A DNA stretch of 62,323 bases, counting the filler, from Aduncisulcus paluster (lineage: Eukaryota): assembly GCA_024181965.1 (NCBI GenBank). It is 4 parts of 4 records of this genome, joined end to end, with 100 filler letters (N's around TTAATTAATTAA, not from the genome) between each part and the next. Parts side by side here need not be neighbours in the genome. Positions count along the whole stretch, not along the records: positions 1 to 11,157 come from BQXS01009960.1; 3 more parts are not named here. One strand, given 5' to 3'. This document shows, piece by piece, positions 1,518 to 28,600 of the stretch. The first letter of the stretch is position 1, and each line of letters starts with the position of its first letter. The notes under the pieces were generated by a model. The model did not search any database. It saw only the letters and a list, made by a program, of their open reading frames with translations, and was not told the DNA's origin. Position numbers and translations under genes: made by a program.

Positions 1518-2025
1518 TTACTGAGCATCAGCAACCTTCCACTGCTTCTTGATCCATTCACTGGCCTTAGACTCAACACCCCATGTCTTAACGACACAAG
1601 AGGAGCAGCGAACCTCACGGGTAGGCTCACCTTCCTCGTCAAGCTTAACAAGACCGGACCAGACACCGAGCTCACGACCAGTGGGAACAGTGTAGAGGGG
1701 GATCTCGTTCTGCTTACAAAGAGCAGTAACAAGTTTCTTGTAACTGTCGTGATCACAGTCCTCAGCAAGGATACAGAGGATAGCTTGACGGGAGTCAAGG
1801 CAGTGAACAACACGACGAAGACCGCAAACAAGACCATCGTTGTACATGGATGTTTTAACAATCTCCTCTAAAGCGGTAGGCTCATCGTATTCCTTGGGGC
1901 CAGTGGCGATTTCTTCTTGAATTTGGACTTCTCTAAAAAAATGTATGGAAAATGAGAAAAAATAAGACGATTAGGCTTAATAGTAATAATTTCAACAATT
2001 CTTAAACATACCCGTCAGCAGACAT
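1518..2025 (-). CDS. RPS12: 40S ribosomal protein S12 (eS12); exons 2025-2012 and 1932-1518, intron 2011-1933 (79 nt)
   Basis: L7Ae-family eS12 motifs DGLVCGLRRVV, LCILAEDCD, YKKLVTALC, ELGVWSGL, VRCSSCVVK. The GTATGT...TAG intron restores an in-frame N-terminus MSADGEVQIQEE. Strong codon bias. Confidence 0.93.
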
Positions 2026-2433: not shown

Positions 2434-3158
2434 ATGCCCGCCAAGAAATTTGACCCCAATGAGGAGACTATTGGTATGTAATTTTATTTTGTATATTATT
2501 TGCGTTTTCCATTGATTTGTTTGGAACGACGCTTTATAGATATATAGGGAATGAAAATATTTATTTTTTATTGTTAATTCATATTATAATATAGTATACC
2601 TTGTCGTCAAGGGAGGAAAGCCCCCAGCTTCTCAGGTTTTAGCCCCTAAGGTTGGTCGTTTGGGTGTTAACCCCAACGCCATCGCTAAGCAGGTTGCTGC
2701 TGAGACCCAAGGGTGGAAAGGTCTCACTGTTACTGTTGAACTTAAGATCAAATGTCGTAAGGCTACCATGAACGTGGTTCCTTCCACTGCTGGTCTTGTT
2801 ATCTCCCGTATCAAAGAAGGAGCTCGTACTAAGGGTATGTTTTTTTAGATTATATTTAACTTTAGTTGTTTTTGTTGTTTAATTCGTCGTGTTAATTTAT
2901 TTATATTTTTTTTCAAAATGATTATGATTTTTAGACACTCCCCACGCTGGTCCCATCGCCTGGTCCGATGTTGTCGATATTGCTCGTGGTCTCCTTGAGA
3001 AGAACAAGACTCTTTCCAAGGATGTTGCCGCCGCTTGCCGTGAGGTCATTGGTACTGTTCGTTCTGTTGGTGGTCATATCGAATACGAAGGAGAGGCCAT
3101 CAGCTGTGAAGAGATGACCGAGATGATCAAAGACAAGAAGGTTCCCATTGCCGAATAA
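2434..3158 (+). CDS. RPL12: 60S ribosomal protein L12 (uL11); exons 2434-2473, 2595-2834, 2935-3158 (167 aa)
   Basis: Spliced translation MPAKKFDPNEETIVYLVVKGG...LAPKVGRLGVNP...WKGLTVTVELKI...VVPSTAGLVI...EVIGTVRSVG matches eukaryotic uL11. Two GTATGT...TAG introns (121 and 100 nt) keep the frame. Confidence 0.95.
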
Positions 3159-3390
3159 ATATTGATCATATAACTTGAAACCCTATATTTGAAATGTTCT
3201 TGGCAACATTTCAAACTTTGAAATTCAAAGTGAGGATCTTTGTGCTGGAAAAAATAAAAAATTAATGTCATTTTTTAAAGGAAAGCCATTTATTACTTTG
3301 ATTTCAACCTTTGAAAAAAATTATTTCAGGTGTAGTGGAAAATACATCTAACAACAACAAAGAACATAAAATGACGGTAAATAATATTAA

Positions 3391-4476
3391 TTACCATTTA
3401 TCTCCTAATTTTTCACGTATTTCATCAAACATTGGGTGCTTCATAGCATCAATGGTGCAAAGACGCTCATCATGATCGAATAGCAACAATTTCTTCATAA
3501 GATCGAGACTTTGAGGTGTTACTAGGGGTAGAGAGAACGCCTTTCCTCGTGGGGATGACATGGGAGATGAAGCAGATGTACTACTTGGAGATATGATTCG
3601 TGAAGATGGCCTCGGAAGAGGGGCACCTTTTCCGAGATCTTCCCAAACCACAGGTTCCCTTCCAGAAAGTTTCTGAGTAAGTTTTTCTTCGATAGGAATG
3701 TCATATTTTAACAGATAATCAGATAGACTCTTGGATCCGAGATAATCAACGATAAGACCAAGCTGCATGCCAGTATCCTTCCCTTTGAAGAAAGGGTCCC
3801 TTTGGAACATCATACCAACCATAATGCAGCCAACACTCCACATGTCAACGTTATAGGAATAATTTTTATAGCCGACGAGCAACTCTGGAGCCTTGAAATA
3901 TCTAGAAGCGACTCGAACGTTATTCTTTACATCTGGGATATAAAACTCTGCTAATCCAAAGTCAATAATTGTCAATTCTTTTTTGCGTTCATCGATGAGC
4001 AAATTGAGCGGTTTGACATCTCGATGCATTATTCCTTGGCTATGGACATAATTCAATCCCTTAATAAGTTGATAAATATAATAGACAAAATCATCATAGG
4101 ATACTTTCACCATAAAAGTGGGCCAGTCCACAGTAGGAACATATTTGAAAACAAGAGCAATTGATCTCATTCCTTCACATTTTATAATATCCAAAAGGGG
4201 GACAACATGTGGTCCACCTCGTATTAAAGCTAATACTTTTGCTTCTCGTTTAATTCGTTTATCTTTAACAGGTTTCAATGCCTTAATAACAACATATTCC
4301 TCCCTGACACTATCAATTCCAAGAAAGGCATCAGAATATTTTCCTTTCCCTATTCTCCTAACAAGTAAATAACGGGAAGGTGATCGGGTACACAATTCTA
4401 TCTGGTCATATTCTGTGTACAACTTTTCTTTATGGGCGCATACATCTCTATAATATTTTGGATAAGTAATGTTCAT
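3391..4476 (-). CDS. CSNK2A: Casein kinase II catalytic (alpha) subunit
   Basis: GKGKYS, LKPVKDKRIKRE, MHRDVKPLN, GLAEFY, NVRVASRYFKAPELLV, DMWSVGC and PFFKG are CK2alpha signature motifs. Confidence 0.93.
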   Translation of the reverse strand: MNITYPKYYRDVCAHKEKLYTEYDQIELCTRSPSRYLLVRRIGKGKYSDAFLGIDSVREEYVVIKALKPVKDKRIKREAKVLALIRGGPHVVPLLDIIKCEGMRSIALVFKYVPTVDWPTFMVKVSYDDFVYYIYQLIKGLNYVHSQGIMHRDVKPLNLLIDERKKELTIIDFGLAEFYIPDVKNNVRVASRYFKAPELLVGYKNYSYNVDMWSVGCIMVGMMFQRDPFFKGKDTGMQLGLIVDYLGSKSLSDYLLKYDIPIEEKLTQKLSGREPVVWEDLGKGAPLPRPSSRIISPSSTSASSPMSSPRGKAFSLPLVTPQSLDLMKKLLLFDHDERLCTIDAMKHPMFDEIREKLGDKW

Positions 4477-4790
4477 TTCAAATGAATAGCTAAATATTCA
4501 ACAAATATATTATTAAATCAACAAGGGATAGATTATATTTGCTGTACAAAACCCTTTTTTGCGTCAATCATTTTCAAATTGGCCAAATATGATTTATAGT
4601 CATAAAATGGAATTGAAATCGGCTTGATAGATGGTGTATTCTAAAATATATCCATTAAAGATTTCTAAAATTTCTAAAGTAATGAAATATGGAAAATTCG
4701 AAAAAAACGAATGATTTTGCAACCGATACGATTTTTTCCACCTTTTTTTACTGCTATTTCTCTATTCTTTTATTTAATTAATTGTTTAAA

Positions 4791-6695
4791 ATGGACGCAG
4801 GTCAACTTCTAAAGAATGGAAATAGGAAGTTTGCGTTCCTTCAGAGTCGAGAAGATAAATCAACTGATATTGTCCCGAATACGCAGTTTCATGTTTTGGG
4901 TCCTGTTATTCATGATTCGCATCATGTTGTACTCCCTCAAAAATCAAGAAACATATTTATTGACTATTCTAAGCCTGGTGATGAAATATATCAAGGATCT
5001 GTGCTTGGAAATAAGTTAAATCCACAATCTAAACTGGGGTCTACTCAAAAAAGTGTTATTAAAAGGGTTGATGATATTGCAAATGAAGATGTTGCCTTTT
5101 CTGATGTTGTCGATGAAGATCATCATTCTGCATTTGAAAATTATCTTTCAGATGAACTTGTTGGTAAATTAACCGAGTCAGGTTTCTTCAAAACTTTTAT
5201 TCTGATTATTATCATTATCAATGCTATTATGACAGGTGTACAGACCGACGATTCTGTAAATAGATCAATTGGAAGTATTCTTGACCTTTTGGATGTTATC
5301 TTTCTTGTTATATTTACTGTTGAAATTCTTTTAAAGTGGTATCATTCATTTATCGATTTTTGGAAAAGTGGATGGAATTGGTTCGATTTTGTAATTGTTT
5401 TTGTTTCAATTCTTGGATCAAGTATTTCATTTATTTCATCTGCTCGAGTTTTGCGTGTTTTACGTGTTCTCCGTGCTTTCCGATCTCTTCGATCCATCAC
5501 CATTCTCCAGGGACTTCAGATCATTGTTGAGACTGTATTTAAGTCTGTTCCTTCCATGGTGAATGTTCTTTTGATGATTGTTCTTGTTATGTTCATCTTT
5601 TCCATTGTTGGAGTGACTGTTCTTGCTGCAGACATTCCAGAGTACTTTGCGTCCCTTTCTGATGCTTTTTATTCATGTTTTACGCTGCTTACCCAAGATG
5701 GATGGGTGGATATTTATCGACGAACGGAAGAAACCGGGCATAAAACGTTTGGTGGAATTTATTGTTTTTCTTTCATTGTTCTCGGAGCCTTTGTTTTGGC
5801 AAACATTATCGTGGGAGTCACAACCAATCTCCTGTTGAAAGCACATAAGGAAATTAAGATCGCCAAGAAAATGAAATCTCGAAGGCTTCACAGGCAGCAG
5901 AAGCGGACAGGAATGGTGACCAAGACGCAAGGACTTCAGCTTGGGAATGGGATGATATCCACCACACATAAGGATACAATTAGTAGCAGAATTGTCGATG
6001 CTAAAGTGTATGAACGTCAGCGACCCATCTGTGTGCCTCAAATCAAACCATCCGCACAGAGTCTTGAGACGTATCTACTTATCTTAGGGGCTGTTCAGGA
6101 CAATTTGAATGAGTTCTGCCAACTCCATCAGGAACTCCAGGCCATATTTGCTGAGATTGCTGAGATAAATGTTGATCTTGAGCATGCAAATGTGGATGGA
6201 ACACTTGGGATCAGTGATGGTGAGAGTAGCAAGCACGAGGAAGAAGAGGAAACATCAGACACTGCCGATGTTGTCACAGCAATGATTAGACGCGAGAAGA
6301 AGATGAAAGAGAAGCAGTCAAGAGCCATTCAAAGGTACAACGCAGCCAATCGTATCCGTATCAAGAGAGTCATGGACAGTGCAAAGTCCTGGAGTGATAA
6401 GAAGGAGCGTATGAAATACTGGCTTGAAGGGAAGCTATTGGCCAAGTTCTCCCTGCAACCGGGTGCCACTGCTGGGTCAACTATTCTGCCATCCCCAAGG
6501 TCTGCGAAAGATGTTATCGTAACGACAAGGGAAGACAAGAGAAGTCGCAAAGAGAGACTGAAGAGGGAAAAAGAAGAGGAGAAGAGGATAATTATGGAGA
6601 AGAAGAGACAGGATAAAGAAGATAAGAGGAGGAAAGAATTCGAAAGTGGAAGAGGAATTGAAATGGGGGAGATTCGAACAACAGGTTCAAGGTAG
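4791..6695 (+). CDS. CATSPER4: Single-domain 6-TM voltage-gated cation channel, CatSper4-like
   Basis: S2-S3 FWKSGWNWFDF, S4 RVLRVLRVLRAFRSLR, pore TQDGW (5691-5705), S6 FVLANIIVG, and C-terminal helix YLLILGAVQDNLNEF..L..EL..I..EI typical of CatSper3/4. First ATG at 4791. Confidence 0.82.
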   Translation: MDAGQLLKNGNRKFAFLQSREDKSTDIVPNTQFHVLGPVIHDSHHVVLPQKSRNIFIDYSKPGDEIYQGSVLGNKLNPQSKLGSTQKSVIKRVDDIANEDVAFSDVVDEDHHSAFENYLSDELVGKLTESGFFKTFILIIIIINAIMTGVQTDDSVNRSIGSILDLLDVIFLVIFTVEILLKWYHSFIDFWKSGWNWFDFVIVFVSILGSSISFISSARVLRVLRVLRAFRSLRSITILQGLQIIVETVFKSVPSMVNVLLMIVLVMFIFSIVGVTVLAADIPEYFASLSDAFYSCFTLLTQDGWVDIYRRTEETGHKTFGGIYCFSFIVLGAFVLANIIVGVTTNLLLKAHKEIKIAKKMKSRRLHRQQKRTGMVTKTQGLQLGNGMISTTHKDTISSRIVDAKVYERQRPICVPQIKPSAQSLETYLLILGAVQDNLNEFCQLHQELQAIFAEIAEINVDLEHANVDGTLGISDGESSKHEEEEETSDTADVVTAMIRREKKMKEKQSRAIQRYNAANRIRIKRVMDSAKSWSDKKERMKYWLEGKLLAKFSLQPGATAGSTILPSPRSAKDVIVTTREDKRSRKERLKREKEEEKRIIMEKKRQDKEDKRRKEFESGRGIEMGEIRTTGSR

Positions 6696-7579
6696 AAAGT
6701 TTGAATTGTTTCAATTCTATATAAGAGAAAATACTCGTCATACTTCATTGATAATCATATATGTTATAATTCATTCACCTGGTCGAGAATGACACTATAC
6801 TATTTGAAGTTGCAATATTTCATGGTTCTTGTTTCTCGTTCTAAATGCATAACATGGATGGAGTTTATTGTTATTGAAGGAACAGAAAAGATTGAGTGAT
6901 TTGTACTATGATATACTAAATCTTCCCAGGTGACTATTGAAATTGATAAAATTCAATATGATGTGACGAAGTCAATATTTACGATCGGGTTTATTTATTA
7001 TTTACGCTTATTCATGCAGCATATATGATATAGAAAAAAGGAGAAAAAACACTAAACATGACGATCAAACCATTCAAACGGTTACGTTTATATATATTAT
7101 TATTATTATAGCAAGGTACAAAAAAGAGAGAGTGAGAGAGAGTGAGACCACGAGATATTGGACAGGAATTATTAATAATTAAAAAGATATTCATCAATTT
7201 CAAAGAAATTAGATAGAAAATATGTTCCAACCAAGTGTGTCATACAAAATAAATAATATCATATCAAAAAATGAGGGAAAAGATGGGAAGATGTGGTGAG
7301 AAAAACCACGTTGTTGAAGAAAAATTTAGAGAAAAAAAAAAAAAAAACAAAATTACCATTGAAAAATCAACATATGAAGGATTAATACTTGCAGTAAAAA
7401 TCGAATCATTCGAGCAAATAAACAAACAGAGAGTTGCAGTTAAATGGGACATTATAAACTTATTAAATTAAAAGGAAAGAATATAATATCTGCAAATAAT
7501 AAATAAAAAAGTGACAACAACAACAAAAAAAAAAAAAATGGGAAGAATTTTGTAAGAATTATGATCATATATAATGGAA

Positions 7580-10500
7580 TCATAATTGGTATACGTTCAA
7601 ACATTTAATGGCAAATATTTCACCGCCAACATTTCCACTTTTCTTAGTCACTCTCCGACAGGCCTTTTCCCACTCAGATTGACGACCATATGCGGCCAAT
7701 GTCTTGCATAGGGTGCCTCTGATGGAACAAGCAAGGCACTTCATCTCGTGAGTATGTGGGGAACCAGATACAATCGGAGCAGAGTCATAACAACAACAAT
7801 ACGAACCATACGACAATTGGCCTGATTGTTGAGGGTCAGATTGCATTCCTCCAAAATCACGCATGGCTTTTATCGAAGATGAGGAACGATATGTCCGTGA
7901 ATCACGAGTATCCTTACATTTCAACAAAAAGCCAGTGTATGAGTGGGGATCAACATCCCGATCGACAATGCAAGAGGAGCATGTTCCACCGCCTTTCACA
8001 ACACACATGCATCCGTATCGCTGAGCGGTACACAAGAGAACATCAGAGGAGAAAGGAGAGGAATGGAGAGCACTCGAAGAGAGCAGGGAAGAGAAAGGGT
8101 CTCGAATGGTGGCGATTCCTTTGGTCAAAGATCCATCTTTTAAGTGGGAAATGGTTGGAGGTGAAGGCTTTGAGAAGTTCATGAGATGGGAAGAGGAGCA
8201 GAGAGCAGGTGATGAGATTGAGACAGGAGTTGTTCCATCATCTTTCTCAAGCACAATTCCACCATCATACTTCCCTGCTAATCCCGTACCTTGTCCATGT
8301 TCTTGTCCATGTTCTTGTACATGGATGGGACCATCCTCAAAGTGGGGAATAACACGAAAATCAACGTAAGGTGAGAGGGGAGAATATAATCTGCCATCGA
8401 GATGCTTTGAAGTATGTAAAATGTTGGGATAATTCACAAGGGAGGAAAGGGAAGTGGATGCCGATGCAGGGAGATGTAAGAAGATGTCTGCAGCTGAAAA
8501 CAGCAGAGATACCATCATGGCACTAGGGGAACAGAAGAGAACAAGAGATGACGGATATTTCCTTGAAAATGATACAAGTGACACCAAATAGCGAACAAAA
8601 GATTTATATTTCTTTTCTGAAGATAGAATTTGCACGGAGGAATCTTGTTCATGTGCTTTGGAATCGCATAAAGGATGTTCACCGTGTCGATGTTCCAATT
8701 CTTCAAGTAATGTGACATCAATATCATGTAACACAACACAGATCTTCATTGAAAGCACCACAAGAGAAGGAAGACACCCCATGAAGGCTGAGAGGGCATG
8801 TAATGATGTTGGGGCAAAGAGAAGGAGTGGAATACGTGGTCTAGAACTATGTATTTGTACTGATAGTTTCTTACTCTCAATGTGGTGATCAGATTGGAGT
8901 TCCTCAGGGATGATATCGCAAGAAGATCCAGACCTTGAGATAGACTGTGATCGAGAGTGCAGTCCGCTCATATCATTCCCACTGCTCCCAACACAACTAT
9001 CCTGTCCTTTCCCATCGTCTCGAGACGGATCAGAGATGTCCACACTGTTCATGCTAGTGAATGTATTGATTCCCCCTGTTCCAATGGTCTTATTGGGTGA
9101 TGTGGACAAAGAACACGGCGAAGAAGAACAACATCCTTTTGTCCAACCACAGAGTTCCCACACTCTTTGTTTAGAGGCGTTCTTGCCAGCAGTGACATTG
9201 GAGGAGTCGAATCTCCTTGGTAAGTACACGTTGGAGGCAGGATTATCCAAGAGAGGGGTCTGATTGAGACAATACCGACAGCATAATAGAGAGACAAACA
9301 CACTCCATAAATTGATATCGTGACACCTATGAGTAAATATGGAGGCAGTAACTTTAGCGATGGAATTCTGCAAACGAGGATAAGAACAATATATGGGGAA
9401 AGAACACGGGAGAGAACGAGGGGGGGAGCCTCGTATGAATTCCTTAGCTTCAAGNNNNNNNNNNNNNNNNNNNNGTTCCCACACTCTTTGTTTAGAGGCG
9501 TTCTTGCCAGCAGTGACATTGGAGGAGTCGAATCTCCTTGGTAAGTACACGTTGGAGGCAGGATTATCCAAGAGAGGGGTCTGATTGAGACAATACCGAC
9601 AGCATAATAGAGAGACAAACACACTCCATAAATTGATATCGTGACACCTATGAGTAAATATGGAGGCAGTAACTTTAGCGATGGAATTCTGCAAACGAGG
9701 ATAAGAACAATATATGGGGAAAGAACACGGGAGAGAACGAGGGGGGGAGCCTCGTATGAATTCCTTAGCTTCAAGAGTTTGGGATGGAGATGCTACAGGG
9801 GCCACGGGTACAGTTTTCCCACTGCAAGACATAGATGCCCTTCGTGAGGAAGGACAGGAGGATATTAGAGATGATTCCTCAAGAATACTTCCAGTGGACA
9901 AAATGGTAGCCTTGTCAGAGAGGCAATATGAACACTGTTCAACAATAATATCACTGTTTGTGGCACCATCAATTGATCTCGGAGAGTGAGCATTAGGTTT
10001 CTCTCTGCCCATCATTCTCTGCATATCAGTAGGATATGTGACCCACATCCCAGTTGAGGGGGAGATGGAATGTCTTGGTCTGAAGATGACACCATGATCC
10101 TGAACATGAGAAGAAGGGGGAAGGGAACATTCCTCGCGGGTATATTGAGTGTTTTGAAGACTCTTCATAGATATCCCGGGATAGATTCCCTCGTAGGGTG
10201 GGAATGAAACTCCATGGATGCGTCGAGACTTACGAATACTGCGGACGAGACATCTAAAGCCTCGTTTCATCTCAGATATCAATGATCGCAGGTGTGACGA
10301 GATTAAAAGTATTTTTCGACGATTAATTTGCTTAATCTTGGAAATTAAAGCGATATGAGCACCCTCATCCAACATTAAAGGAGGAGATTCCTTATCTTTT
10401 TCCTCATCAAAATCTACACTTTGGTTAGTATCAACGGACAATGCAACCCCGTCCTCAAGTAACGAATCTATTTTTTTGTGTCTATGAGTCCCTTTCTCTT

Positions 10501-11157
10501 CCTGCGTGGCTTCTCTTTGCTCTATTCCTCCTGAACTTTCACTTGTTGGTTCGATGCATGGCTGATGAACGATGTTTCTTCTATTCTTGCGTGTAATTTT
10601 GATCTTTACGTCGCCTCCGCCTTCACGGATGAGAGAACGAACAAAACCAGTTCCGCCGACAAGCACACGATCGCTGCACACACAACCACACTTGAACACG
10701 CTCACGCAGCCATAGAACTCACAGATAGACTGCTCCACGGGCAACGTGAAGAGAGAGTGGGGGAGAGAGACAAGGTCAAGGAAGGAAGGAGGGAAGAGAA
10801 GATAAGAGAAGGAGAGATGAAAGGGGGTGAAGATAAACTTGGGAATAGGGTCAGGGTTCTGTGTCACACTGCCTGTCCCATATGGTGGAAGGGTAGTATG
10901 GTAAGATGGGATTGACTGCTCGGATATAGATCCTTTGGAATCAGAGGGGTGAAAGATGAAGTCCGGAGGTATCTCAGAACCTCGGGTACAAATGGACAAT
11001 GAACTTTGACCACCAAAAGCACCGATTTGATGGAGTTGCTTCAATTCTTCACCCTTTTTCAGTGTGAATGTCGAAGTATCTTGATCTGCTCCAGTAGAGT
11101 GGACTTCTAATCCATATCGTAGAGTCTTATAGATAAGTGGAATGAATCCTCCATCTT
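7580..11157 (-). CDS. Highly divergent GT5 glycogen/starch-synthase-like protein, 5'-partial, probably catalytically degenerate; contains an artefactual 301-bp duplication
   Basis: Frame is open from the linker gap. Ordered motifs resemble GlgA/starch synthase: PDFIFHPSD (PDIIHCHD), FIFTPFHL (VFTIHNL), KCGCVCSDRV (KAGIVYADRV), NPASNVYLPRRFDSSNVTAGKNASK (NPATD..LP.NY..DDLSGKA.CK), SAADIFLHLP (AGADIFLMPS), AQRYGCMCVVKGGGTCSSCIVD...TGFLL (AMRYGTVPVVR.TGGLADTVVD...TGFVF). Confidence 0.68.
9154..9775. repeat. Direct duplication (9154-9454 / 9475-9775) flanking a 20-N gap; probable unmerged contig overlap
   Basis: Apparently identical 301-bp copies on either side of N20 at 9455-9474. Confidence 0.85.
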
Positions 11158-11995: not shown

Positions 11996-13546
11996 TCATC
12001 TGAACAAAACCTTTGTGATGATATTACCGAGTTTTCCAACATGTTTCTCAAAAATTACATGGAAAAGATAGGAAAGAATGAGAAGGGACAAGAGAAGACC
12101 ACTTCTGGAGATGTTGAACCCAACGGGATGTGATAATGACAACCATTCAACTCCAATATCTTCAATCTTTTCAGCTAACCCATTTCTAATCCACCCATAT
12201 TCGTAGAGAGCGGCTTGAATAAGATAGGTGGAATAGGAAATATTTCCGATAAAACGCATGAGGGAACAGCCACCTATTGATAACAGGGAAGTGGGCATCC
12301 CAAAGGGTTTTAAAATGGGCAAAACGATGAGACCGAACAACAGAACACAACTCGAGATAATACGCCCCCAAAAGATATCGAAAAGCCTCCTTGTTCGACT
12401 GTAAGAGCTATCAAAATCAACAGAGAGGAACTCACGAATGACCAAAGAAAGATGAACGAGACCAAGACACACAATGTCATACAAAATGGAAACCATCTTT
12501 GAAAGGACAGGGGAATGAGACAAATAACTCTTCTGGCTTGCAGTGGAAGAGGATTCACTGGACTGGATCTTCTCAGTGACTTCGTTCAAAACTTGGGGAG
12601 ATGGAATTTCCTTCGGTTGCTCGACACGTACTTCTTCCTCTTCCTTTCTTTCTTCCTCTTCCTTTCTTTCTTCTTTTTCAGCATCAATGATTTCCTTTTC
12701 TTGATGGACAATGGGTTCTGGTGTCTTTTTGTTATTCAAAGCATCTTGTTCATACCTATTCACATGACGGATCAATAAACACCACATAACGACACCAAAG
12801 AAGTATCCAAGGAACTTGATTGGTCCAAACGAATAGGATGCTATATGGACATTGATGTTAACAGTGTCAGAATCGGGGAAAAACATATTTGGGGCACGAT
12901 GTTGGTAATTGAAAACAATTACAGGGATTACAAGGGCTAAAAAGAAAAGGGATGACAAAATGATGCCACGAAGTGAATAAATACCACCAAATCGTTTGGT
13001 AATCTTTTGACAGGACCAAAGAATAGGAGGCAAAAAAATGGCACAAACACAATCCGAGGCAACACTCCATGTTATTCCTGGAGGAACGGTGTAAGAGGAA
13101 ACGAAAGCGGGGAGTAAAGTAAAATTCCACCAAATCGAAAGAGGGAAGATATTTCCCCGGTATTTGAACCCAAGAGAAAGAACCCACATTGTTTGGAGAA
13201 GGGTAGGAATAGTAGGAAGCCATAAACGAAGATAACGTTTAATAACGTATTTTAAATAATTCTTAAAAGAAGGTTTCGTGGATAGGAGAGATTTAGCTGC
13301 AAAAAAGCCAACAAGAGCATGAAAGACTGCCATAAAATACCGAATGTTGGTTTTTTTCATCGATAAAGGAAATACTTGAGCGGTTCTTCCGGTATTATAG
13401 ACTTCAGGTAAGGGAAAATCGCCTGAGGGACAGGCATCGGCCATAGTTTGCATGTGAAGGACTGCTATAGCAATAGAAGCAAGGCCTCGAATACCTTGCA
13501 AATAAGAAAAGACTTTTTGCAACCTTTTTGATGAAGAAAAGCCCAT
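11996..13546 (-). CDS. Acyltransferase-3 family (OafA/Oac/NRF-6-like) multi-pass membrane O-acyltransferase
   Basis: LQGIRGLASIAIAVLH, FHALVGFF, KRYLRLW, TWSVASD and FIGNISYSTYLIQ motifs, with many hydrophobic segments. First ATG at 13546. Confidence 0.85.
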   Translation of the reverse strand: MGFSSSKRLQKVFSYLQGIRGLASIAIAVLHMQTMADACPSGDFPLPEVYNTGRTAQVFPLSMKKTNIRYFMAVFHALVGFFAAKSLLSTKPSFKNYLKYVIKRYLRLWLPTIPTLLQTMWVLSLGFKYRGNIFPLSIWWNFTLLPAFVSSYTVPPGITWSVASDCVCAIFLPPILWSCQKITKRFGGIYSLRGIILSSLFFLALVIPVIVFNYQHRAPNMFFPDSDTVNINVHIASYSFGPIKFLGYFFGVVMWCLLIRHVNRYEQDALNNKKTPEPIVHQEKEIIDAEKEERKEEEERKEEEEVRVEQPKEIPSPQVLNEVTEKIQSSESSSTASQKSYLSHSPVLSKMVSILYDIVCLGLVHLSLVIREFLSVDFDSSYSRTRRLFDIFWGRIISSCVLLFGLIVLPILKPFGMPTSLLSIGGCSLMRFIGNISYSTYLIQAALYEYGWIRNGLAEKIEDIGVEWLSLSHPVGFNISRSGLLLSLLILSYLFHVIFEKHVGKLGNIITKVLFR

Positions 13547-13812: not shown

Positions 13813-16425
13813 ATGAATTTGTTAACACCCAACAAAAATGACCATCAAAACGAGAAGGACACAAGAAAAGAGGAGCATGAGACAATATCTTCACTCAGAG
13901 TCGTTTTTATTTGCCCTGAGAAAGAGGTGAAACTTATTGAAACTGTTAAAAAGGTGTCAGATGTAGTTGTTTATCCTCCTGGAAAAGATTCTTCTCTTCC
14001 AGAGAAGTTTGGAATATACATATTTTATGAATCTGTAATTATCCACAAATATTCAGGTCGTAATGCTGTTGAGCGTTTCTCTGTTGAGTTTCCGCAATTC
14101 TCCAAGAGATTTGAGTTGGCTTTCGCTCAGAAGGACATCAATAACAAAATGAGTTCTTCAAGTGCTTGTAAACATCTTTCTGCTTTTGAAAAGTATAAAT
14201 ATACCGATATTTGCAGATATCTTGATCATGATCAGATAGGAAAAGATGATGTTCATGTTCTTGTTTTCCTGCATTCTTCAAACCCTATTGAATCTCATTT
14301 GTTCTGTTCTTTGAGTAGTGATATTTTTCATGCAAGGAAACCGGCATTGGAATGTTATTTTGTTGATCTCGATACGAACCTGTTTGTGAGTTTCCTATCT
14401 CGACATGTCGATACTTCATGCATTCAAATGGTTCGATATTCCCCAAAGAAAGAGCATTTTAAAATCTCTATTCCAATTGATAGCTTTTCTGAGGAATTTA
14501 CCCTTGATGAGTCCGGTGTGTCAGAATTGAAGGCAACACTTGGAATTGTTGATAGAATTCATCAGGCGGAAGAAGAAAGCGAAGAAGAGAGGCGACAAGA
14601 GAAGGAAAGACTTGAAATGGCAAGAAAAGTCGAGGAAGAGCGTCTGAGACTTATGAAGAAAGAGAAGGAAAAGAAATATCAGGAACGTCAAGAAGAAGCT
14701 CGAGTTGCTATGGAACAGCGGAAAAAAGAAGAATTAGAAAGAATAGAGGCTGAGAAAGCTAAGCAAGTTGAGGAGGAAGAAAAGATAAAGATCCCATCAC
14801 AAAATAATCCATCTGCTTCTGTAAATTCGAGTTTATGCCAATCTGACAAAAATTCTTCAGTTAGCTCTCTCCCTATGAAAGATGCTTCTATGAAAGAATC
14901 TGAGGTCCCCATTGTCATTTCTAAACCCCCTCAAGATATCCTTAAACATCAGACACCACAAACTGTCTTTGAGGAAAAGGTCAACAAAAGTCAAGAGGAG
15001 TCGGTTATATTGGATTCGGATAAACATCATGATACTCTGAAAGACGGCAAATCTGTGGATTTGTCTACAGTGGATCAGTTAAAAATGGTTCGTGAGAAGA
15101 TAAATCAACTTGAACGTCTAATGCAGTCTTCATCCATCATTGGAGAGAGCTCATCAAATTCTTTCCAACTGGCGGATCTTTCGTCCAAATTGAGTGCAAA
15201 AATGGAGAAAGAGCTCTCTTCTGTCCTTTCCAAACACAAGACTATTTCTGAATTACTACGATCCAATGAAGAGAGAAAGACTGTGGAGAGTTCTATTTTA
15301 AGCCGTTGTGAGAAACTAGAAGGTGCTATAAAACATCTCGAGGATGCTTTTGAGGTTGAGAAGAAGCGTGACATGGAAGAGAGTTCGGATTTTAGGCTAC
15401 ACTCCGATCTTACCACAAGTGTTGGGGACAGAGTCTCCATTCTTGAGAAACATGTTCAGATTCTATTGATGCGCTCCGACCCTCTCTTTCCAATATCCTC
15501 TTGTCACCGATTACTTGTCGATTCTGTGTCTCGATCCTCCAAAGTATCGTTGCGCTTTAATTGGAAAACTTTCTCCCATCTTCCGGCCTGTCTTGATTAT
15601 GTGACAGGGTTGTATGTCAAGAAATCATCTTCGGGGGCTAAGTTTGCACCAATTCCTCTCTTATCGTCTAATTCTCACATCGACTTGACATTTTCTTCTG
15701 TCTATCAATCGTCCATCGCCTCTCAGGACTGTCAGAATGATTGTGTAATACCTTGTGCACAGTGGGACATGTCTTTGTCTGGATCTTTGAGCTCTCTCCC
15801 CACTCCAACCGTATCATTCCCTCACATTCCACATGAGGCAGACATGTGCCCATTTGCTCCGATTCCGAGTCATTATTCTTCAATCGGATGTTGGAGTGGG
15901 GCCTCAAAGCGTCGTGGAGATTTTGTTACTATCGTTTTCCCTCGGCCAACTGCTATATGTGCTGTTTTGACAGCTGGACGCCCTTCATATGACCAGTGGG
16001 TACGTGCATTTAGCTTATGGTCTTTTGATGGGAGTTCGATGCAATGGAGCCCTCTCAATAGGGCACATGTGTGTGATCAGACTCCTTGTTCATCCCAAGC
16101 ATCTCCTTCTGGCATTAACAACCCAATTCCTGCCAAGAATAGTCAGCTTTCACCCACACTTCGAACTCCAACATCTCTCTATTCAAAATCAAGAAAGGTT
16201 AGCCGGGCTCAGAGTCCTGCTTTTTGCAAGTCTGTCAAACACCGCAAAAGTGTGTCTCAAAGACAAGTTGTGAGGCATCCGGCAATATTCACTGCTAATT
16301 CTGATCGGAACTCACTTGTTTTGAATGTTTTGACAGAACCAGTTGTGGTGCATAAGATTCGAATTAGAGTTGAAGAATATGAGAATTGGCCATCAATGAG
16401 ATTTGAATTATTTGGATGGTATTAA
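13813..16425 (+). CDS. Coiled-coil protein with C-terminal F5/8 type C (discoidin/FA58C) domain
   Basis: 870-aa ORF. C-terminal CWSG...FVTIVFPRPTAICAVLTAGR..YDQWVRAF...FTANSDRNSLV...PVVVHKIRI...SMRFELFG is the FA58C pattern, interrupted by a low-complexity insert. Confidence 0.78.
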   Translation: MNLLTPNKNDHQNEKDTRKEEHETISSLRVVFICPEKEVKLIETVKKVSDVVVYPPGKDSSLPEKFGIYIFYESVIIHKYSGRNAVERFSVEFPQFSKRFELAFAQKDINNKMSSSSACKHLSAFEKYKYTDICRYLDHDQIGKDDVHVLVFLHSSNPIESHLFCSLSSDIFHARKPALECYFVDLDTNLFVSFLSRHVDTSCIQMVRYSPKKEHFKISIPIDSFSEEFTLDESGVSELKATLGIVDRIHQAEEESEEERRQEKERLEMARKVEEERLRLMKKEKEKKYQERQEEARVAMEQRKKEELERIEAEKAKQVEEEEKIKIPSQNNPSASVNSSLCQSDKNSSVSSLPMKDASMKESEVPIVISKPPQDILKHQTPQTVFEEKVNKSQEESVILDSDKHHDTLKDGKSVDLSTVDQLKMVREKINQLERLMQSSSIIGESSSNSFQLADLSSKLSAKMEKELSSVLSKHKTISELLRSNEERKTVESSILSRCEKLEGAIKHLEDAFEVEKKRDMEESSDFRLHSDLTTSVGDRVSILEKHVQILLMRSDPLFPISSCHRLLVDSVSRSSKVSLRFNWKTFSHLPACLDYVTGLYVKKSSSGAKFAPIPLLSSNSHIDLTFSSVYQSSIASQDCQNDCVIPCAQWDMSLSGSLSSLPTPTVSFPHIPHEADMCPFAPIPSHYSSIGCWSGASKRRGDFVTIVFPRPTAICAVLTAGRPSYDQWVRAFSLWSFDGSSMQWSPLNRAHVCDQTPCSSQASPSGINNPIPAKNSQLSPTLRTPTSLYSKSRKVSRAQSPAFCKSVKHRKSVSQRQVVRHPAIFTANSDRNSLVLNVLTEPVVVHKIRIRVEEYENWPSMRFELFGWY

Positions 16426-16682
16426 TATTTTGGTTTGTTTGTTTTAATTTAACGTTAGAACCTTGTAATTAATGTATAGGACGAAGCACCTTAGCCACAA
16501 TGTGGGCTGTCACATGAAAGTGTTATTTGCATTTAGTTCTTTGTGTTTTATTGTTTAAATAAATTATTTTTGATTGGGCATTGTATTTTTTTATCATGAA
16601 TTGCAAATAATGTTCGGATATGAGGCAACCAAAGATGAAAATTTGAATTTCTTGTCTCATGCCCAATCCATTCAATTAAATC

Positions 16683-19600
16683 ATGAGTGAGACTGAAGAT
16701 GTTCTTGAAATCTTATATGAGACTGAGAATAGTACGCAATTGGTCCCTGAATATTTATGTATTAAAGAATGGAACTATTTTGTTGCTAGAGTAATATCCA
16801 AGGATATATTTAAAAATGACAAACAACTTTCTAAATTTATGGAGTATATTTCTCATTATTCAAGTCTTAGAAGTCCCTTTATTTGTCCTCTTTTGGCTGT
16901 GGAACACTCTGTTGGTGAAGATGATGTTATTCTTCAATTTCAAGATCCTGGATGTTCTTTGGCATTATTTATTTCACGTATTCAAGCTAGATCAAGTTAT
17001 TCCGCCCCTAAAACAACAAAACAGGGCGCTCATTTTTCTCCTTTTTTTTCTCTCTCTGATGAAGATGGATCTGATGAATTTGATTCCATTCAATATCAAT
17101 CTGATCCCTCACAGGGAATTTCTATTCATTCTTCAAATCCTGAATCTCACAATCGTAATCTTTCTATATTTCGCTTTTCCAATTCATTTCGCATGTCTCC
17201 TCTTTCTGCAGCACTTGTTTCCCTTTCTATATTGAGAGCCAGTGTTCATCTTGAACATAAACATTCTTGTTTTGAGGCCACAAATATTTTTTTGTCACTT
17301 GATACAACACAGGAAAAAGAAGTTCTTCATTCTTTCTCCCTCGATCCAAATATTGAACTTTGTCTGGGTGACGAACACATGCAAAGGCGGCAAGACATTA
17401 AAGATAAGGATAATTTTCTCTCTAAACTTCAATCTAAGGAAGACCAATCCCAAATGTACTCTCCTTCCACAAGTGTGTCTCCAGATCCTGTTGACCCAGA
17501 GCCTTCATCTCCTTTTTCTTCTCTAATCCATCATTATTCCTCGGCTCTTACGGGATGGTTCCAACTATTTACTCAACCCTCCACTCCGGATTGGCTTCTT
17601 AATAGTGTTCGAAATTCATGGCGTGTTAATGGGGGAAATGTGTCTATCGTTGGCAGTGGACAGCTCTTCGGGGCTGAATCGGTGCCATGTGTGATTCGTG
17701 TGTGCAAGTGTGGAGTTGCCGGAGTAGGTGGATGTGGTGTTGCAGAGAATATCAGTGTTAATGAGTGTTGGAGCATATGTTCATGTTTGTTTTCTCCTCT
17801 CCGTGGTGTTCACGATGGAATCGGAGAATTATTCGCCAAAAGGGCGCAAGATAGGGCTCGAGTTGACCGTGAAGACATGGAAAAACGGAGGGTGCAAAAA
17901 CTTGAAGAAGAGCGAGAATCGAAACGTATTCTTGAACAGGAAAGAGAACGTGAGATGTCATATTCTGACTCACATCTTGGGCAAGAGGATTCATATGATC
18001 CCTCACCCCTTCATGAATCAACAGTCATTGGAGCTGAATATGTGATAGAGCACAATGGAGGGATTCAAGAAGGCGAATTAAGTGAGATAAGTGTGTCCCG
18101 TGATCATGAAGAAGTGTTGGAAAGAGATGGTGGCATTGACCAAGCTTCTTCTCATCCACCCAAAGCGGAGGAACTTGATTCAACAACATCGGTCATTGGC
18201 AAGCTTAATGAACAAGAAAAGATGAAGTCAAAAGACTCCTTTTCTCCCTCTATTATCCCTTCTTTTCTCTTCTCTAAACAAGACACAACACTCTCTCTCT
18301 TCTTTCTTCTCTCTTTTCTGCTCTACCCTTCTGTTTTCTCACTCGAACTCACCCCTATCGACTTGGTTCCGGGATATATTTTGGTGCAGCAGGCTTTGAA
18401 ACGCAAAAAGGAGGAATTTATGAAGCAAGTACGTAATGTTGTGCGTGGGAAGAGTTCAGGACCTGTTCATCAAGGCACAGATAAGGTTTGTTCTATTTTT
18501 GAAATGAGTGATGATCCTCGTAAGCAAGGGAAAAAGAAGAAAAGATCTACTCCTGAATTGACTCCTACAGATTTATACACTGATACTTCTGTTTTCACAT
18601 CGTTATATTTGTCATGTTTGCATGCATTTCCCCCATTTTGTTCACTTGCAGAGCCCCTTTCTCATCATTTCCCATCTCTGGATGATCTTTCTCAAACTTG
18701 TCTCTTTCCCTCTCTCTCTGCGACTTTTTCAGATCCATCTTCAACCGCCCTCTCTCTTCTCTCATCCCTCTCCTCTCTCTCTCTTTCTCTTTCCACCAAG
18801 CTGTCTCCCCTGTGGATGCTCTCATGGATGACAATGTGGGGTGGTGAGACCTGGAGATTAAGGGTTCTTGATGTCATGGCGATGAAAAAGAGGAACGATA
18901 ACGTAAGGATGAAACAAAGGATGAGAGAGAGGGAGATTCGAAGGGATAAGGAGAGAAGAGCAAGCATTTTGGGGGATGATGGGGTGAGTGGGGTGCGAAG
19001 AAAGAAAGGCATCCTAAAACCTATTGTAGATCATCGAATAGCTTCTCTTTTGTCTATTCCAACTCGACTTGAGGTTGGAACTATTCGCACTGGATCCAGA
19101 CTAGCTTCATCGAGTACAAAGCACATTGATCAAACAAGACAACCTTCTTATACCTCAATTATACTCGATTCTCTCCCAAAACAAACCTTGGTTCTTTCAG
19201 ATTCTCTTGTGGAACTATTTTCTCAAAAAAAATTTCCTCTTCACATGTTTTCAGTTCGCACCTTCTCCTATTCATCATCATTGACAAGACCTATGGTTCT
19301 CAGTTTATTAAGTGCATGGCAACGGATAGCCAGAAACAAAGAGAAGGTCCCTCTTGCTTCACGATGTATGAGAACAATGTCACATGCGTCCTTATCCCGA
19401 AGCCATTCTCGTGCCCCTTCTCAATCCCGTTCTATATCAAGATCACAGTCAATCACTCGTTCCGATGCACCGAGCAAGGATGTTGAGGAAGGATCTTCAT
19501 TTGACGATGCGACAGATGATCGGTTTGTCACCCACGATGGATTTATTGAACGTGTGGATTATCGAGGTAAGAAACACGAAGAGGATGCACATCGAACAAT

Positions 19601-20686
19601 GGATTCCCTTGATGCCATGAAAAGATCGATCGTTGATGATGAAGAGGAAGAAGATCATTTGCTTCAGATCGAGCGGTATCGTCAACATGTTGAAGCTTAT
19701 TTCACATCTCCCCATGGTTCTCCATCGCCTCATAGATTTGCCCATTCCACATATCCATCCTCTGTATCGCTTGCTGCTGATATTGCAATGCTTGAGGAGC
19801 TTTCAAATAGTGACTCCGATCAAATGGGATCTTTGAGAGGAATGGGGGTTGAAAAGTCCAAACATGACAATGGCCTTCATGAAGGATCAACGATTGCAAT
19901 ATCTGATACTGGGTCGGACAATGCATGTGGCATTAGACGATTATTTGCATTTTGTCAATGTTGTAACGGTTCAAAACCCCAAGCAAGGCAAGATTGGACT
20001 ATTTCTCACTCTCTTCCACTTATTTCCACCCTAAATATAGCTCTTTCTCACAAACTTCTTTCGTCCAAGCCTCTTTCGGTTTTGAAGCCCATTATTCGGC
20101 CTGCCTTACAACCAATGAAAATTAAGGGTAAACTTGACATTCCCAAGCTTAGTTTTCTTCTAAACTCGATTTCTTCAATTTCAAAGCTGATGTATATCCT
20201 GGCCCGAATTCCTCCACCGTGCTATCTTACTTCTCTGGACTTCCTACGTTTTCCTCAACCTTTGCTGTTCCTCTCTTCTTCATCTTCACTCTTTTTTTTC
20301 TATGTATCTCTTTTATTCCTTCCCAAGACATCCTTTTCCACCCTGGCATGTTCTCTTGCGGCCGCTATATTTTCTCCTCGCGAATTTGACACGAGCGTAA
20401 CGAATTTATTCTGGAGAGAAGAGATTAGATTTAGAGAGGAACACCGTGATCCTGTTCGTTTGAAAGGAAAAGATATTCTTGGAGTTATTCCAAAGATTCA
20501 ATCGTGTCCGAGCTCTTCTGACAAAGTTTCTCCTTCTTTCCATCCATTATTAGCTTTTTCTCAAGATCTACCTCCAATCTCTGGACTCTCAGTCACTTCA
20601 TCGTCTTCACAGCCCCATGTAACCTTCTCTGCAAAGAAATCTGTGTCTTTAAAGTCTGTTTTCGGTTCAAACACCACAGTTGAGTG
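16683..20686 (+). CDS. Large hypothetical protein, 3'-partial; N-terminus weakly resembles a degenerate protein-kinase N-lobe
   Basis: More than 1330 codons open to the linker gap. The segment FVARVISK..F.N...L..F..YI..YSSLRSPFICPL...VILQFQDPGCSL is spaced like kinase subdomains II-V, but no catalytic motifs are present. Confidence 0.7.
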
Positions 20687-20786
20687 NNNNNNNNNNNNNN
20701 NNNNNNNNNNNNNNNNNNNNNNNNNNNNNNTTAATTAATTAANNNNNNNNNNNNNNNNNNNNNNNNNNNNNNNNNNNNNNNNNNNN
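20687..20786. other. Artificial contig linker N44-TTAATTAATTAA-N44
   Basis: Same 100-nt structure as at 11158. Confidence 0.97.
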
Positions 20787-25628: not shown

Positions 25629-28600
25629 ATGTCAACTGTTCTGGATAATCAAACCAAGAATTATATCACATATCTATTGTTAAAGTCTCAGAGCTCAAAA
25701 GCAAATGCTAAGCTATCTCAAATACAACATTTAATATTACAAGCATATGAAGGGATTATTTCCGAAGATGTATTTAAGAATTTACATGCTGCTGCTGTAA
25801 ATTTAAGACTGGCGTTGAAAAAACACTCAAGAGTTGAGCGAAGAGCTTTTATTCAAGATCAGGAAGCAAAAGCTGCTAAAATGGAGCCAATGGTTGCGAA
25901 AAAACTAGGTGTAGGTGTGTCTGCTCACAAGAGTGATTCATGGCGTCTTCCATCCCCAACTATTCCAAAACCCCCTCAACAGCATATCCCTCCAGGTGGT
26001 TCTATTCCTCAGAATCCACCTCAATCACAAGGCGGAGTCAATCCGCTGGCATATAAAAGGCCTATGATGCCCTCTCGTCCAATCCCTTCATCTCTGTATA
26101 CTGGAGGTGATTCTACCACTCAATTTTCCCCGTCAACCTCAAAACCCACTCAGATATTAACTACCCAAGCTTCTAGTAGAGATTCTCAATCCGCCAAACT
26201 TAATGCTCTGTCATCCTTCCTTGAAACTCCTATTCGACCACCTCCATCGCCACAACAATCAGATATTCATTCCATTCCTGCCCCTCCTGTCATTAGTGAT
26301 ACGTCTGCTTTTGGTGGCTCTCGTGGGTCGTTCTCAACCATTAATCCCATTGATCCTCTGAGTCTTCAGATGAACCAACATCTCCGACCCTCTGTTAACG
26401 TTGATGCCGATATTGATCACATTCATCAAAAGGCCGAAATACTTCCCCCCACGTTGACACATACCAAACAACACCCTATCACTTCTTCTTCCTCTTCTTC
26501 CTCTTCTTCCTCTTCTTCCTCTTCTTCTGTGACAAAATATCCTGTATTTTCTCTTGTTTCTCTCATGAAACATCCACAGCTTCCAGATTGGATTCTCCCA
26601 TCGCTGGAGCAGTTCCAAAGGCATGTTGAAGAACTAAAACATGAATTGGACTCACAGAAACAATATACTATCGAGATATCAGAAGATAAGAACGCCTTGG
26701 TCCTTGATTTAAATGAAACCATTGAAGAACTCAAAAGAAAACATTCTGAAAGTATGATAAAACTGAAATCGAGACATACACAGCTTCTTGACGATATTAA
26801 ACGCTCTTCTCACTCTTCTTCCGTGACTTTACACACACAGGTGCAGAATTTACAAGCGGATTTAGCCAGACAAACCAAGACAATCGATCTACTCAAGAAA
26901 CAGCTTGTTAGTGTGAAGAATTCTGAGAAAGCCCTTCGTACAACTCAAAGGTCGGCCCTTTCTGCTGCAAAAAGAGGGAAAGAACAGGCCCAGGAATTGA
27001 AGAAAGTATCTGATGAGTTGTATGAAGCCAAAAGAGAGATACAGCGGTTGAGAAGTGTTATCAGAGGTCGAAGAATGAGCATTGGTCAATCGTCTATGCT
27101 TATGCACTCCACAACTGCTGCTCCAACCAGCTCTACTATGATCCCCAACCCACCTTCAAATTCAGGTCATGTTAGTGTAGTGCAGCATAGTACAGGGCCA
27201 GTCAGAGAGAGGGATCAAATCTCCACAAAACAACATGACGAATCCATGGAAGTTGGTATGTTTGACACGACTCACCCTTACTCACACAATACTTCTACCG
27301 TACAACCACATCCTCCTGCACAACACCATGAACAACACCAGCGTGGATATGAACAACAATTGCAATCCACGGCACTCAGTAGCCTTGTAGAGTCCCATAC
27401 TCTTTTCTCTCATCTTCCTTTACCTCTCTCATTGACATGCCTCTTTATTTATCCATGCACTGATGTTGATCGTTTGTCAGAACACACTATTGCCTTGAAG
27501 GAAAGAAGTGGGAACATTCGACGTGTTGCTTGTGGTCGTGTAATTGCCGCCATTCCACCATCTCCTCGCTCAGCTTCAAAAGGAATCATTAGTAGCTCTG
27601 CACCAGGGTCAAGTAGAGGCTCTGAAGATAGAAAGGGGAAGGATCATGGTATTAATAGTAATGATAATGGTGATGATATTGATAATGATATTGATACAAA
27701 GCATGAAGGTATTGGAATTGGTCTTGATCTTGATGCTAGTACAACTCTTGCTTCAGCGTCATCTCGTGTGGTCGGTGATTCTTCACCCGTTACAGCTTCA
27801 TCTTCTTCTTATGAGGATTCAGAATCACACAAACATGCTATTACTTCATCGGAATATGAAATCAGTGTGGATATATCTGAAACTGGTTTTGTTCCGCTTT
27901 TGGATGCAGTGTGGAATCAAGCACAACGCAGTGCTATAGTGATTGAAGGCGAAGGTCGTGAAACAGCCATGCTTGATCTTTTCTCCCAATGTTCATGCAT
28001 GTTGGTCGATCGTAGATACTCTCAAGAAAAACGAGCAACAGAATCATCAAATATGCAAGAAGTGGAACAAGAAGAAGTAGAACAAGAAGAAATGGAAGGG
28101 AAGAAGAAAGGAAAAGAAGAGATAAAGGAAGGAAAAATATCAGGAGAGAGAGAAGGAGAGGAAGAGAGAGAAGGAGAAGCAATGGATTCTATAAATAGAG
28201 ATGAGAAAGAAGAAGAAAGTGATGATGATGGTGCTTCCTCTATCTTCTCAGAATCTGATGATGAACAGAGACAAAGGATTCTGTATGGAAGGACTATTCC
28301 TTCTGCTTCTGTTCCAAAGCAACATCAAGAGATCTCTCACCAGAAACAATACTCTTCCCCTGCTTTTCCATCTTCTCCCTCTCCTTCCCTTGCTGGTATG
28401 ACATATGTCCCACCACAGATCCTTGTATCCGCCATTGCTATCAGAGGCACTGTCGGAGTTGATCTCATTGCCCCTGCCAATTCACTCTCTCTGCCTGTCC
28501 ATCCAGCATCTTCGAGTGTAAAGAATCCCCTGACATCAATGGGAGCAACTCAAGTATCGATTCGAGACAAGGATGACTGTACCAAAGTATGTCAATTCAT

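Follow-up and report, generated by a model that had tools for sequence, protein, structure and literature searches.

A CatSper4 orthologue in the flagellate Aduncisulcus paluster and its putative place in a heteromeric calcium channel

The calcium channel by which animal sperm tails are steered has four pore subunits, of which CatSper4 is one. An earlier CatSper survey by Cai, Wang and Clapham reportedly appeared in MBE in 2014. Here, we analyze a complete gene for a CatSper4 orthologue, P0001, on a 62,323-nucleotide stretch of DNA from the flagellate Aduncisulcus paluster (assembly GCA_024181965.1; four parts of four records joined end to end), referred to below as the window. A first-pass annotation of the window, made from the sequence alone, had proposed a CatSper4-like subunit at this position and, if the host was a metamonad-like flagellate, had read it as extending CatSper to another deep lineage. 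The suspected affinity agrees with our results, the nearest named relatives of P0001 being those of the metamonads Carpediemonas and Paratrimastix. The claim of an extension is not supported in that form, since CatSper of Carpediemonas was published in 2021 and CatSper3 and CatSper4 of Paratrimastix, together with a CatSper2-like protein of Aduncisulcus, already carried these names in their source records.

The 2021 paper reports CatSper alpha, beta, gamma and delta in Carpediemonas, includes Trichomonas, Monocercomonoides, Kipferlia, Spironucleus, Trepomonas and Giardia in its sampling, gives CatSper as absent from all metamonads except Carpediemonas, and suggests a role in the sexual cycle. 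A later CatSper paper describes searches of the Thecamonas, Allomyces and Aurantiochytrium genomes. Public records also contain a "putative CatSper3" and a "putative CatSper4" from Paratrimastix pyriformis and a "CatSper2 like protein" from A. paluster itself (P0057). We found no published discussion of the Paratrimastix and Aduncisulcus names, and the literature found on CatSper and Metamonada together consisted of the Carpediemonas work and an apusomonad study.

The nearest named relatives of P0001 are the CatSper4 proteins of Carpediemonas membranifera (P0002; 45% identity) and P. pyriformis (P0098, the putative CatSper4; 48% over the matched stretches). Both are collinear with P0001 from an N-terminal motif to the C-terminal ER..W..GK, and both possess the helix that follows S6. 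The filter of P0002 is TQDGW, as in P0001; that of P0098 is SQDGW, and the pore helices of this protein are followed by an insert of 23 residues. Because the identity to these orthologues is only about 40 to 48%, P0001 comes from a different lineage. Among solved channels, the best single-repeat relative is mouse CatSper4 (chain D of the CatSpermasome, 7eeb; also 9ubw_D), which shares with P0001 a single six-transmembrane (6-TM) repeat, with about 30% identity over 243 aligned columns and a target-normalized TM-score of 0.78. It differs in that P0001 is longer, has a K/E/R-rich tail and belongs to a protist, not to sperm; the solved mouse chain comprises 242 residues, so that the post-S6 helix of P0001 falls outside the structural comparison. 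CatSper2 and CatSper3 (for example, P0057 of Aduncisulcus and P0261 of Paratrimastix), the presumed partners, resemble P0001 in their single-repeat architecture and T-x-D-x-W filters and fall with it into one superclade, but they form separate, well-supported clades and have filter forms of their own. NavAb, NaChBac and EukCat share the 6-TM fold and a four-subunit pore with P0001, NavAb being a close structural match, whereas bacterial Nav and EukCat channels are homotetramers with Glu-based filters. EukCats are described as phylogenetically distinct from CatSpers.

Assignment of P0001 to the CatSper4 family

The frame of P0001 opens with the ATG at 4791 and runs uninterrupted to the stop codon at 6693 to 6695 (634 amino acids [aa]). 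The enclosing stop-to-stop frame opens at 4782, which places an in-frame stop just 5' of the start codon, the first ATG to follow it. The list of open reading frames (ORFs) and the translation gave exactly the limits proposed at first pass. In the homology search, the best named homologue was CatSper4 of C. membranifera (E value of 1e-104), followed by matches named CatSper4 from a chytrid, cnidarians, sea urchin, amphioxus and sharks down to an E value of about 1e-42; several further chytrid matches bear generic names. After a gap, with the next family starting at E values near 1e-33 to 1e-22, the list went on with two-repeat channels, bacterial "ion transporters" (about 1e-22) and a CatSper2-like protein (2.7e-21). 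The identity of CatSper2 and CatSper3 proteins to P0001 was 26 to 30%. The best 150 matches of a representative search comprised CatSper4-like single-repeat proteins and four-domain channels, the repeats of which sum, and included no CatSper1 to CatSper3.

Comparison with solved structures gave a consistent picture. Among the 60 best matches, all of at least 111.3 bits, mouse CatSper4 (7eeb_D) was the top single-repeat chain (146 bits; E value of 1.3e-41), the other single-repeat chains listed reached at most 113.6 bits (NavAb-type chains about 113), and mouse CatSper1 to CatSper3 did not appear. Four-domain Nav and Cav chains headed this list because the scores of their four repeats add up. 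Other members of the family, used as controls, found their own mouse counterparts: P0057 matched CatSper2 (179 bits, against 79 for CatSper3 and 70 for CatSper1), P0053 matched CatSper3 (144 bits), and P0290 matched CatSper1 (149 bits). Two further proteins considered as CatSper1 candidates, P0289 and P0291, were rejected on account of a weak CatSper3 match (86 bits) and a long branch beside CatSper3.

A profile derived from the alignment of CatSper4-like proteins was run against the window with hmmsearch. Of the window's 425 six-frame stop-to-stop frames of at least 50 aa, only that of P0001 (337 bits) was reported at an E value of 10 or better; the match is far beyond chance. Applied to other proteins, the core profile gave 335 bits for Carpediemonas and 314 for Paratrimastix, compared with 133 for the CatSper2 protein P0057, 154 for the CatSper3 protein P0053 and 147 for the bacterial channel P0054.

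To place P0001 among related channels, a tree of 98 channel repeats, hand-picked from 323 proteins, was computed with IQ-TREE (LG+C20 posterior mean site frequency model, 241 columns, 1,000 ultrafast bootstraps and the Shimodaira-Hasegawa-like approximate likelihood ratio test [SH-aLRT]). The rows were 36 CatSper4-like (12 of them named as such at source), 15 CatSper2, 15 CatSper3, 1 CatSper1-like, 9 bacterial, 12 repeats of three four-domain channels, 4 repeats of two two-domain channels and 6 unplaced single-repeat proteins. The Mesostigma protein P0049 was omitted because it has only a partial domain, and three four-domain channels were kept. P0001 fell inside a clade that coincides with the 36 CatSper4-like rows and so holds all 12 proteins named CatSper4 at source (bootstrap 100, SH-aLRT 99), animal ones among them; a quick tree recovered the same set with an SH-aLRT of 98. 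The CatSper2 clade (15 rows, 100/100) was its sister at 98/91, the CatSper3 clade contained its 15 rows plus 2 unnamed ones (100/98), the CatSper1-like row x290 (P0290) joined CatSper3 at 90/74, and all CatSpers were united at 99/92. Outside this group lay all 12 four-domain repeats and 8 of the 9 bacterial rows, the latter serving as outgroup; in the quick tree, the remaining bacterial row (Bac_Pirellulaceae) was likewise placed outside the CatSpers. P0001 is thus separated from CatSper2, CatSper3, the CatSper1-like protein, bacterial and four-domain channels. The first-pass annotation had named a grouping with bacterial Nav or EukCat channels, together with a genome lacking other CatSper subunits, as the outcome that would speak against CatSper4; as to the grouping, in this set, which contained no EukCat-named sequence, P0001 was nested within CatSper4 instead. 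Its CatSper4-like identity is borne out by both the tree and the ranking of the solved single-repeat chains.

The CatSper4 clade also has members from Allomyces, Gonapodya, the glaucophyte Gloeochaete and an unclassified eukaryote, and a partial one comes from the streptophyte alga Mesostigma. The proteins in question are P0111 and P0329 (Gloeochaete wittrockiana), P0049 (Mesostigma viride) and P0100 (Eukaryota sp. GEM-RC1, on which we found no literature) on the CatSper4 side and P0244 (labeled "Rmarinus") in the CatSper3 clade. With CatSper3 and CatSper4 clades present in flagellates of the Archaeplastida side and in an unclassified eukaryote, the spread of the family is wider than "opisthokonts plus a few protists." As a separate observation, the weaker matches of P0001 included two-repeat channels of 600 to 950 aa (P0050 to P0052, P0059 and P0179) with filters such as TQENW and TGEDW; in the quick tree, repeat 1 of P0050 fell near domain I/III rows and repeat 2 with domain IV rows of four-domain channels.

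TQDGW, held at first pass to be the CatSper4 version, was found in 25 of the 36 CatSper4-clade rows and in none of the 15 CatSper2 or 15 CatSper3 rows, as had been expected. The CatSper2 filters were TLDQW or TFD[HQ]W (TFDQW, TFDHW) and similar forms, those of CatSper3 were T[AV]DGW (TADGW, TVDGW) and similar, and the bacterial filters were of the Glu type (TLESW in 7 of 9 rows, the others TTEDW or TLEDW). Five chytrid members of the CatSper4 clade (P0007, P0010, P0035, P0036 and related rows) have TQIGW, with Ile in place of the filter Asp, which would leave their CatSper pore with no more than three carboxylates.

Features outside the membrane were examined in two alignments, A1 (33 CatSper4-like sequences) and A2 (a full-length alignment of 8 sequences). 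The consensus F.DIVD.DD and S..L.G of the region preceding S1 is kept across the 33 proteins of A1, and within it F103, V107, D108, D110, Y118 and G125 are invariant in A2. A Q-x-P motif is common to the family, and a D-x-L-S motif after the post-S6 helix is common from sharks to chytrids to protists. P0001 and the protist orthologues also have in common an N-terminal P...R.IF motif, in which all eight sequences of A2 keep P49, R53 and F56, and, toward the C terminus, the motifs D493-V-V-T-A-M and ER..W.EGK. Homology search, solved structures, phylogeny and these extra-membrane features are four independent lines of evidence for CatSper4, and we assign P0001 to this family with high confidence.

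Channel architecture and proposed mechanism

P0001 has a single Pfam Ion_trans match (aa 132 to 347; E value of 1.7e-43) and a single domain matching the CatSper4 profile (aa 100 to 348). A hydropathy scan recovered S1, S2, S3, S5 and S6 as hydrophobic segments. An AlphaFold2 (AF2) model of aa 100 to 480, built on the 33-sequence alignment, had a mean predicted local distance difference test (pLDDT) score of 76.7, the pore-domain blocks (93 to 96) being its best-predicted part. It contains a pre-S1 helix (model residues 11 to 30, aa 110 to 129), S1 to S4, an S4-S5 linker, S5, two pore helices and a long S6, which runs to about aa 372 and is followed by a linker of low pLDDT. Beyond this linker, the model predicts a single long helix for ETYLLILGAVQDNLNEF...EIAEIN (model residues 323 to 369, aa 422 to 468; block pLDDT of about 70 to 80). 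Animal, chytrid and protist CatSper4 proteins in A1 agree in the consensus ENY.L.L.A.E.NL.EY..L...L..I..EV...N for this helix, and Y428, E441, F442 and N460 are invariant in the eight closest orthologues of A2. Hydrophobic residues recur in the helix with a spacing of three to four (L432, V435, L439, F442, L445/H446, L449, F453 and I456). This spacing and the invariant Asn 460 form a coiled-coil pattern, which would point to a role in subunit assembly.

S4 carries six Arg at every third position (residues 219, 222, 225, 228, 231 and 234). Thus, the single 6-TM domain, the roughly six regularly spaced S4 Arg and the conserved helix after S6 that had been noticed at first pass were all recovered by the profile, hydropathy, model and alignment data. 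D168, F175 and E178 in S2 and D199 in S3, which we take, by analogy with NavAb-type channels, to be the charge-transfer center, are invariant in A1 and A2, and the voltage sensor looks intact. In a profile-registered alignment, 28 of the 36 CatSper4-clade rows have R or K at all six S4 positions, compared with four charges in the three shark CatSper4 rows; all 9 bacterial rows have four at the six scored positions. Six S4 Arg alone are no demonstration of steep voltage gating, because mammalian CatSpers are described as "weakly voltage-gated."

Drawing on the solved mouse complex and the conservation of the family, we infer the heteromeric partners, Ca2+ selectivity, flagellar location and physiological role of P0001, and the mechanism is most likely as follows. 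P0001 is a single-repeat 6-TM cation-channel subunit of the voltage-gated type, the CatSper4 orthologue of this flagellate, and would take one of the four nonequivalent positions around the single pore of a CatSper1-2-3-4 heterotetramer; that it works within such a heteromer in its host is, in our judgment, probable. D303 of the filter would give one carboxylate to a Ca2+-selecting ring of four Asp, which it would complete because the CatSper2, CatSper3 and CatSper1-like clades also keep Asp. The voltage sensor would be formed by the six-Arg S4 with the countercharges D168, E178 and D199 and the aromatic F175, and the amphipathic post-S6 helix may act in assembly of the subunits on the cytoplasmic side. 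Ca2+ entering through the complex would change the flagellar waveform, and we lean, if only slightly, toward a control of flagellar Ca2+ by this channel.

The gene, its transcripts and the rest of the window

The features of P0001 and the neighboring genes with Pfam matches are collected in Table 1.

Table 1. Positions of the P0001 gene, its parts and other Pfam-matched genes along the window.
Feature	Positions	Strand	Basis or remarks
CatSper4-orthologue gene, complete and intronless (P0001)	4791-6695	+	634 codons plus stop; ORF list, translation
N-terminal cytoplasmic region, aa 1-101	4791-5093	+	Short motif P49...R53..F56, common to protist CatSper4 orthologues
Pre-S1 CatSper4 signature, aa 102-125, AFSDVVDEDHHSAFENYLSDELVG	5094-5165	+	Helix predicted from about aa 110 onward
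Voltage-sensor domain S1-S4, aa 131-237	5181-5501	+	Pfam Ion_trans, hydropathy, AF2 helices, invariant columns
Putative S4 gating charges R219, R222, R225, R228, R231, R234	5445-5492	+	Sequence, profile-registered alignment
Pore domain (S5, pore helices, S6), aa 245-348	5523-5834	+	Pfam, hydropathy, AF2, A2; conserved S6 Asn N338
Selectivity-filter motif TQDGW, aa 301-305	5691-5705	+	Motif position; D303, G304, W305 invariant in A2
Basic extension beyond S6 with a linker of low conservation, aa 349-421	5835-6053	+	K/R-rich composition; R364, L366, Q410 invariant in A2
Conserved amphipathic post-S6 helix, aa 422-468, candidate coiled-coil assembly element	6054-6194	+	AF2, A1, A2
K/E/R-rich C-terminal tail, aa 469-634	6195-6692	+	Composition; two short motifs in A2
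Protein kinase	3391-4476	-	Pfam; read from sequence as casein-kinase-2-alpha-like
Acyltransferase	11996-13546	-	Pfam
ABC transporter	56212-60972	-	Pfam

Two public runs from one sample, X1 and X2, both contain the stretch, and X1 behaves as DNA. One 9,991-base contig of X1 covers positions 2500 to 7118 at a depth of 1262.9, and the P0001 gene lies on this gap-free 4,619-base stretch with the same depth as its neighbors. In X2, 13 contigs show a GT..AG joint that skips positions 2834 to 2933 in the gene of the ribosomal protein uL11, a joint absent from X1; a loose poly(A) end occurs at 3173, and contig depths range from 15.8 to 479,403. On the basis of the joint, the poly(A) end and this range of depths, X2 was treated as RNA. 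Two of its contigs lie over the channel gene (4429 to 6490 at a depth of 228.6 and 6522 to 7317 at a depth of 368), with no differences from the window and no joint within the frame, leaving positions 4398 to 4428 and 6491 to 6521 uncovered; their depth over the gene is of the same order as over the adjoining kinase gene. These data fit an intronless and transcribed gene.

The uL11 (RPL12) gene itself (2555 to 3173, plus strand) has a 100-nucleotide GT..AG intron at 2834 to 2933, the joints of which are seen in X2 only. Loose ends at 2588 to 2594 imply a further upstream exon, and its contig depth is the highest seen (about 4 to 5 x 10^5). The organism therefore has canonical spliceosomal introns, and the channel gene is without any. 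An eS12 gene (1518 to 1970, minus strand) matches solved 40S S12 chains with 113 bits. Compared with solved ribosomes, neither eS12 nor uL11 yielded a taxonomic signal for the host, the scores being flat. Elsewhere in the window, intronless frames of 870 to 1,351 aa, without a Pfam match even at an E value of 0.5, lie at 13813 to 20738, 25629 to 28943, 38501 to 46575 and 52189 to 56154; they are lineage-specific large proteins of unknown kind. The window contains 11 runs of N, and in a frame on the minus strand (7580 to 11044) a block of about 100 aa is repeated on both sides of the N run at 9455 to 9474; this block was probably duplicated in the assembly, where scaffolds were joined, and is no real repeat.

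Alternative explanations and significance for the CatSper family

As a whole, the evidence is best explained by a CatSper4 orthologue that acts in a heteromeric flagellar Ca2+ channel, a reading to which we give a probability of about 0.7. Several observations weigh against it. The window holds no second Ion_trans gene, and no Pfam family of a CatSper auxiliary subunit (beta, gamma, delta or epsilon) was detected in its 22 long ORFs at an E value of 1e-5, nor in 13 of them at 0.5; as a 62-kb sample, the window speaks neither for nor against a complete CatSper complex. In the tree, CatSper1 is represented by a single unnamed protein, and within the CatSper4 clade the fork of P0001 with Carpediemonas and Paratrimastix is not settled, so that this protein places its host by nearest-neighbor distances only. 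A Foldseek search with the AF2 model had 7eeb_D at the top (E value of 2.8e-10) and NavAb next (3.7e-10), scores so nearly equal that this model-based fold search does not separate CatSper4 from NavAb. The chytrid proteins with TQIGW show that membership in the CatSper4 clade is no guarantee of a four-Asp filter in every lineage. Finally, X2 is RNA by its behavior only, its label being a guess, the window may itself derive from the sample behind X1 and X2, and contig depth measures expression poorly, the contigs giving neither transcript ends nor levels.

One rival reading is a channel derived from CatSper4 that now works without the full complex. In this case, the host would have kept only this alpha type or fewer than four of them, and P0001 would form a homotetramer or a reduced heteromer, perhaps at a site other than the flagellum. 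The window yielded no partner, and with its six-Arg S4 and complete filter P0001 could in principle work as a homomeric voltage-gated channel. However, further subunits occur in other metamonad material (alpha, beta, delta and gamma in Carpediemonas, CatSper3 and CatSper4 in Paratrimastix) and in Aduncisulcus itself, which has the CatSper2-like protein, and the CatSper4-specific cytoplasmic motifs of P0001, including the post-S6 helix, are still kept at their invariant positions, as expected from continued assembly with the same partners. We consider such an orphan channel unlikely.

Two other explanations find far less room. NavAb chains stood just behind CatSper4 in the fold search and bacterial channels are detectable homologues at an E value of about 1e-22, which could suggest a single-domain channel of the bacterial Nav or EukCat type with a T-x-D-x-W filter made CatSper-like by convergence. 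This is strongly disfavored by the position of P0001 within CatSper4 and of the bacterial rows outside it (8 of 9 on the outgroup side and the ninth outside the CatSper group in the quick tree), by the Glu-type bacterial filters, by the difference between 337 and 147 bits against the CatSper4 profile, and by the cytoplasmic motifs common to CatSper4 only, the comparison with EukCat being indirect in a set that holds none so named. It is also very improbable that the gene is a nonfunctional relic or belongs to a contaminant and is no working gene of the host. The scaffold does have 11 runs of N, and the adjoining long frame has its duplicated block on either side of one of them, but the 634-codon frame is intact with every family-invariant residue present, it lies in the gap-free part of one DNA contig at the depth of its neighbors, and it is covered by the RNA-like contigs.

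A CatSper4 orthologue in Aduncisulcus represents no new kind of system, as published work or public annotation already covers the family, its occurrence outside animals and its presence in metamonads. It adds a further well-supported data point for a four-subunit CatSper that is older than animals and fungi and still exists in anaerobic metamonad flagellates, and it places a CatSper4 gene outside the two Carpediemonas species, the Paratrimastix and Aduncisulcus annotations pointing the same way. The six S4 Arg of P0001, compared with four in sharks, make it a candidate for studying how voltage sensing changed within CatSper. A wider proposal, which we put forward only tentatively, is that the CatSper complex is an ancestral eukaryotic flagellar Ca2+ channel, not specific to sperm or gametes in origin, and that a free-living metamonad transcribes it in its ordinary cells in culture. 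The RNA-like contig coverage at a depth similar to that of the kinase gene and the occurrence of the CatSper4 clade in metamonads, Gloeochaete, Mesostigma, fungi and animals are compatible with it. If it is true, a six-Arg and possibly more strongly voltage-gated CatSper would switch the flagellar waveform during feeding or avoidance, and not only in a cryptic sexual cycle of the kind suggested for Carpediemonas.

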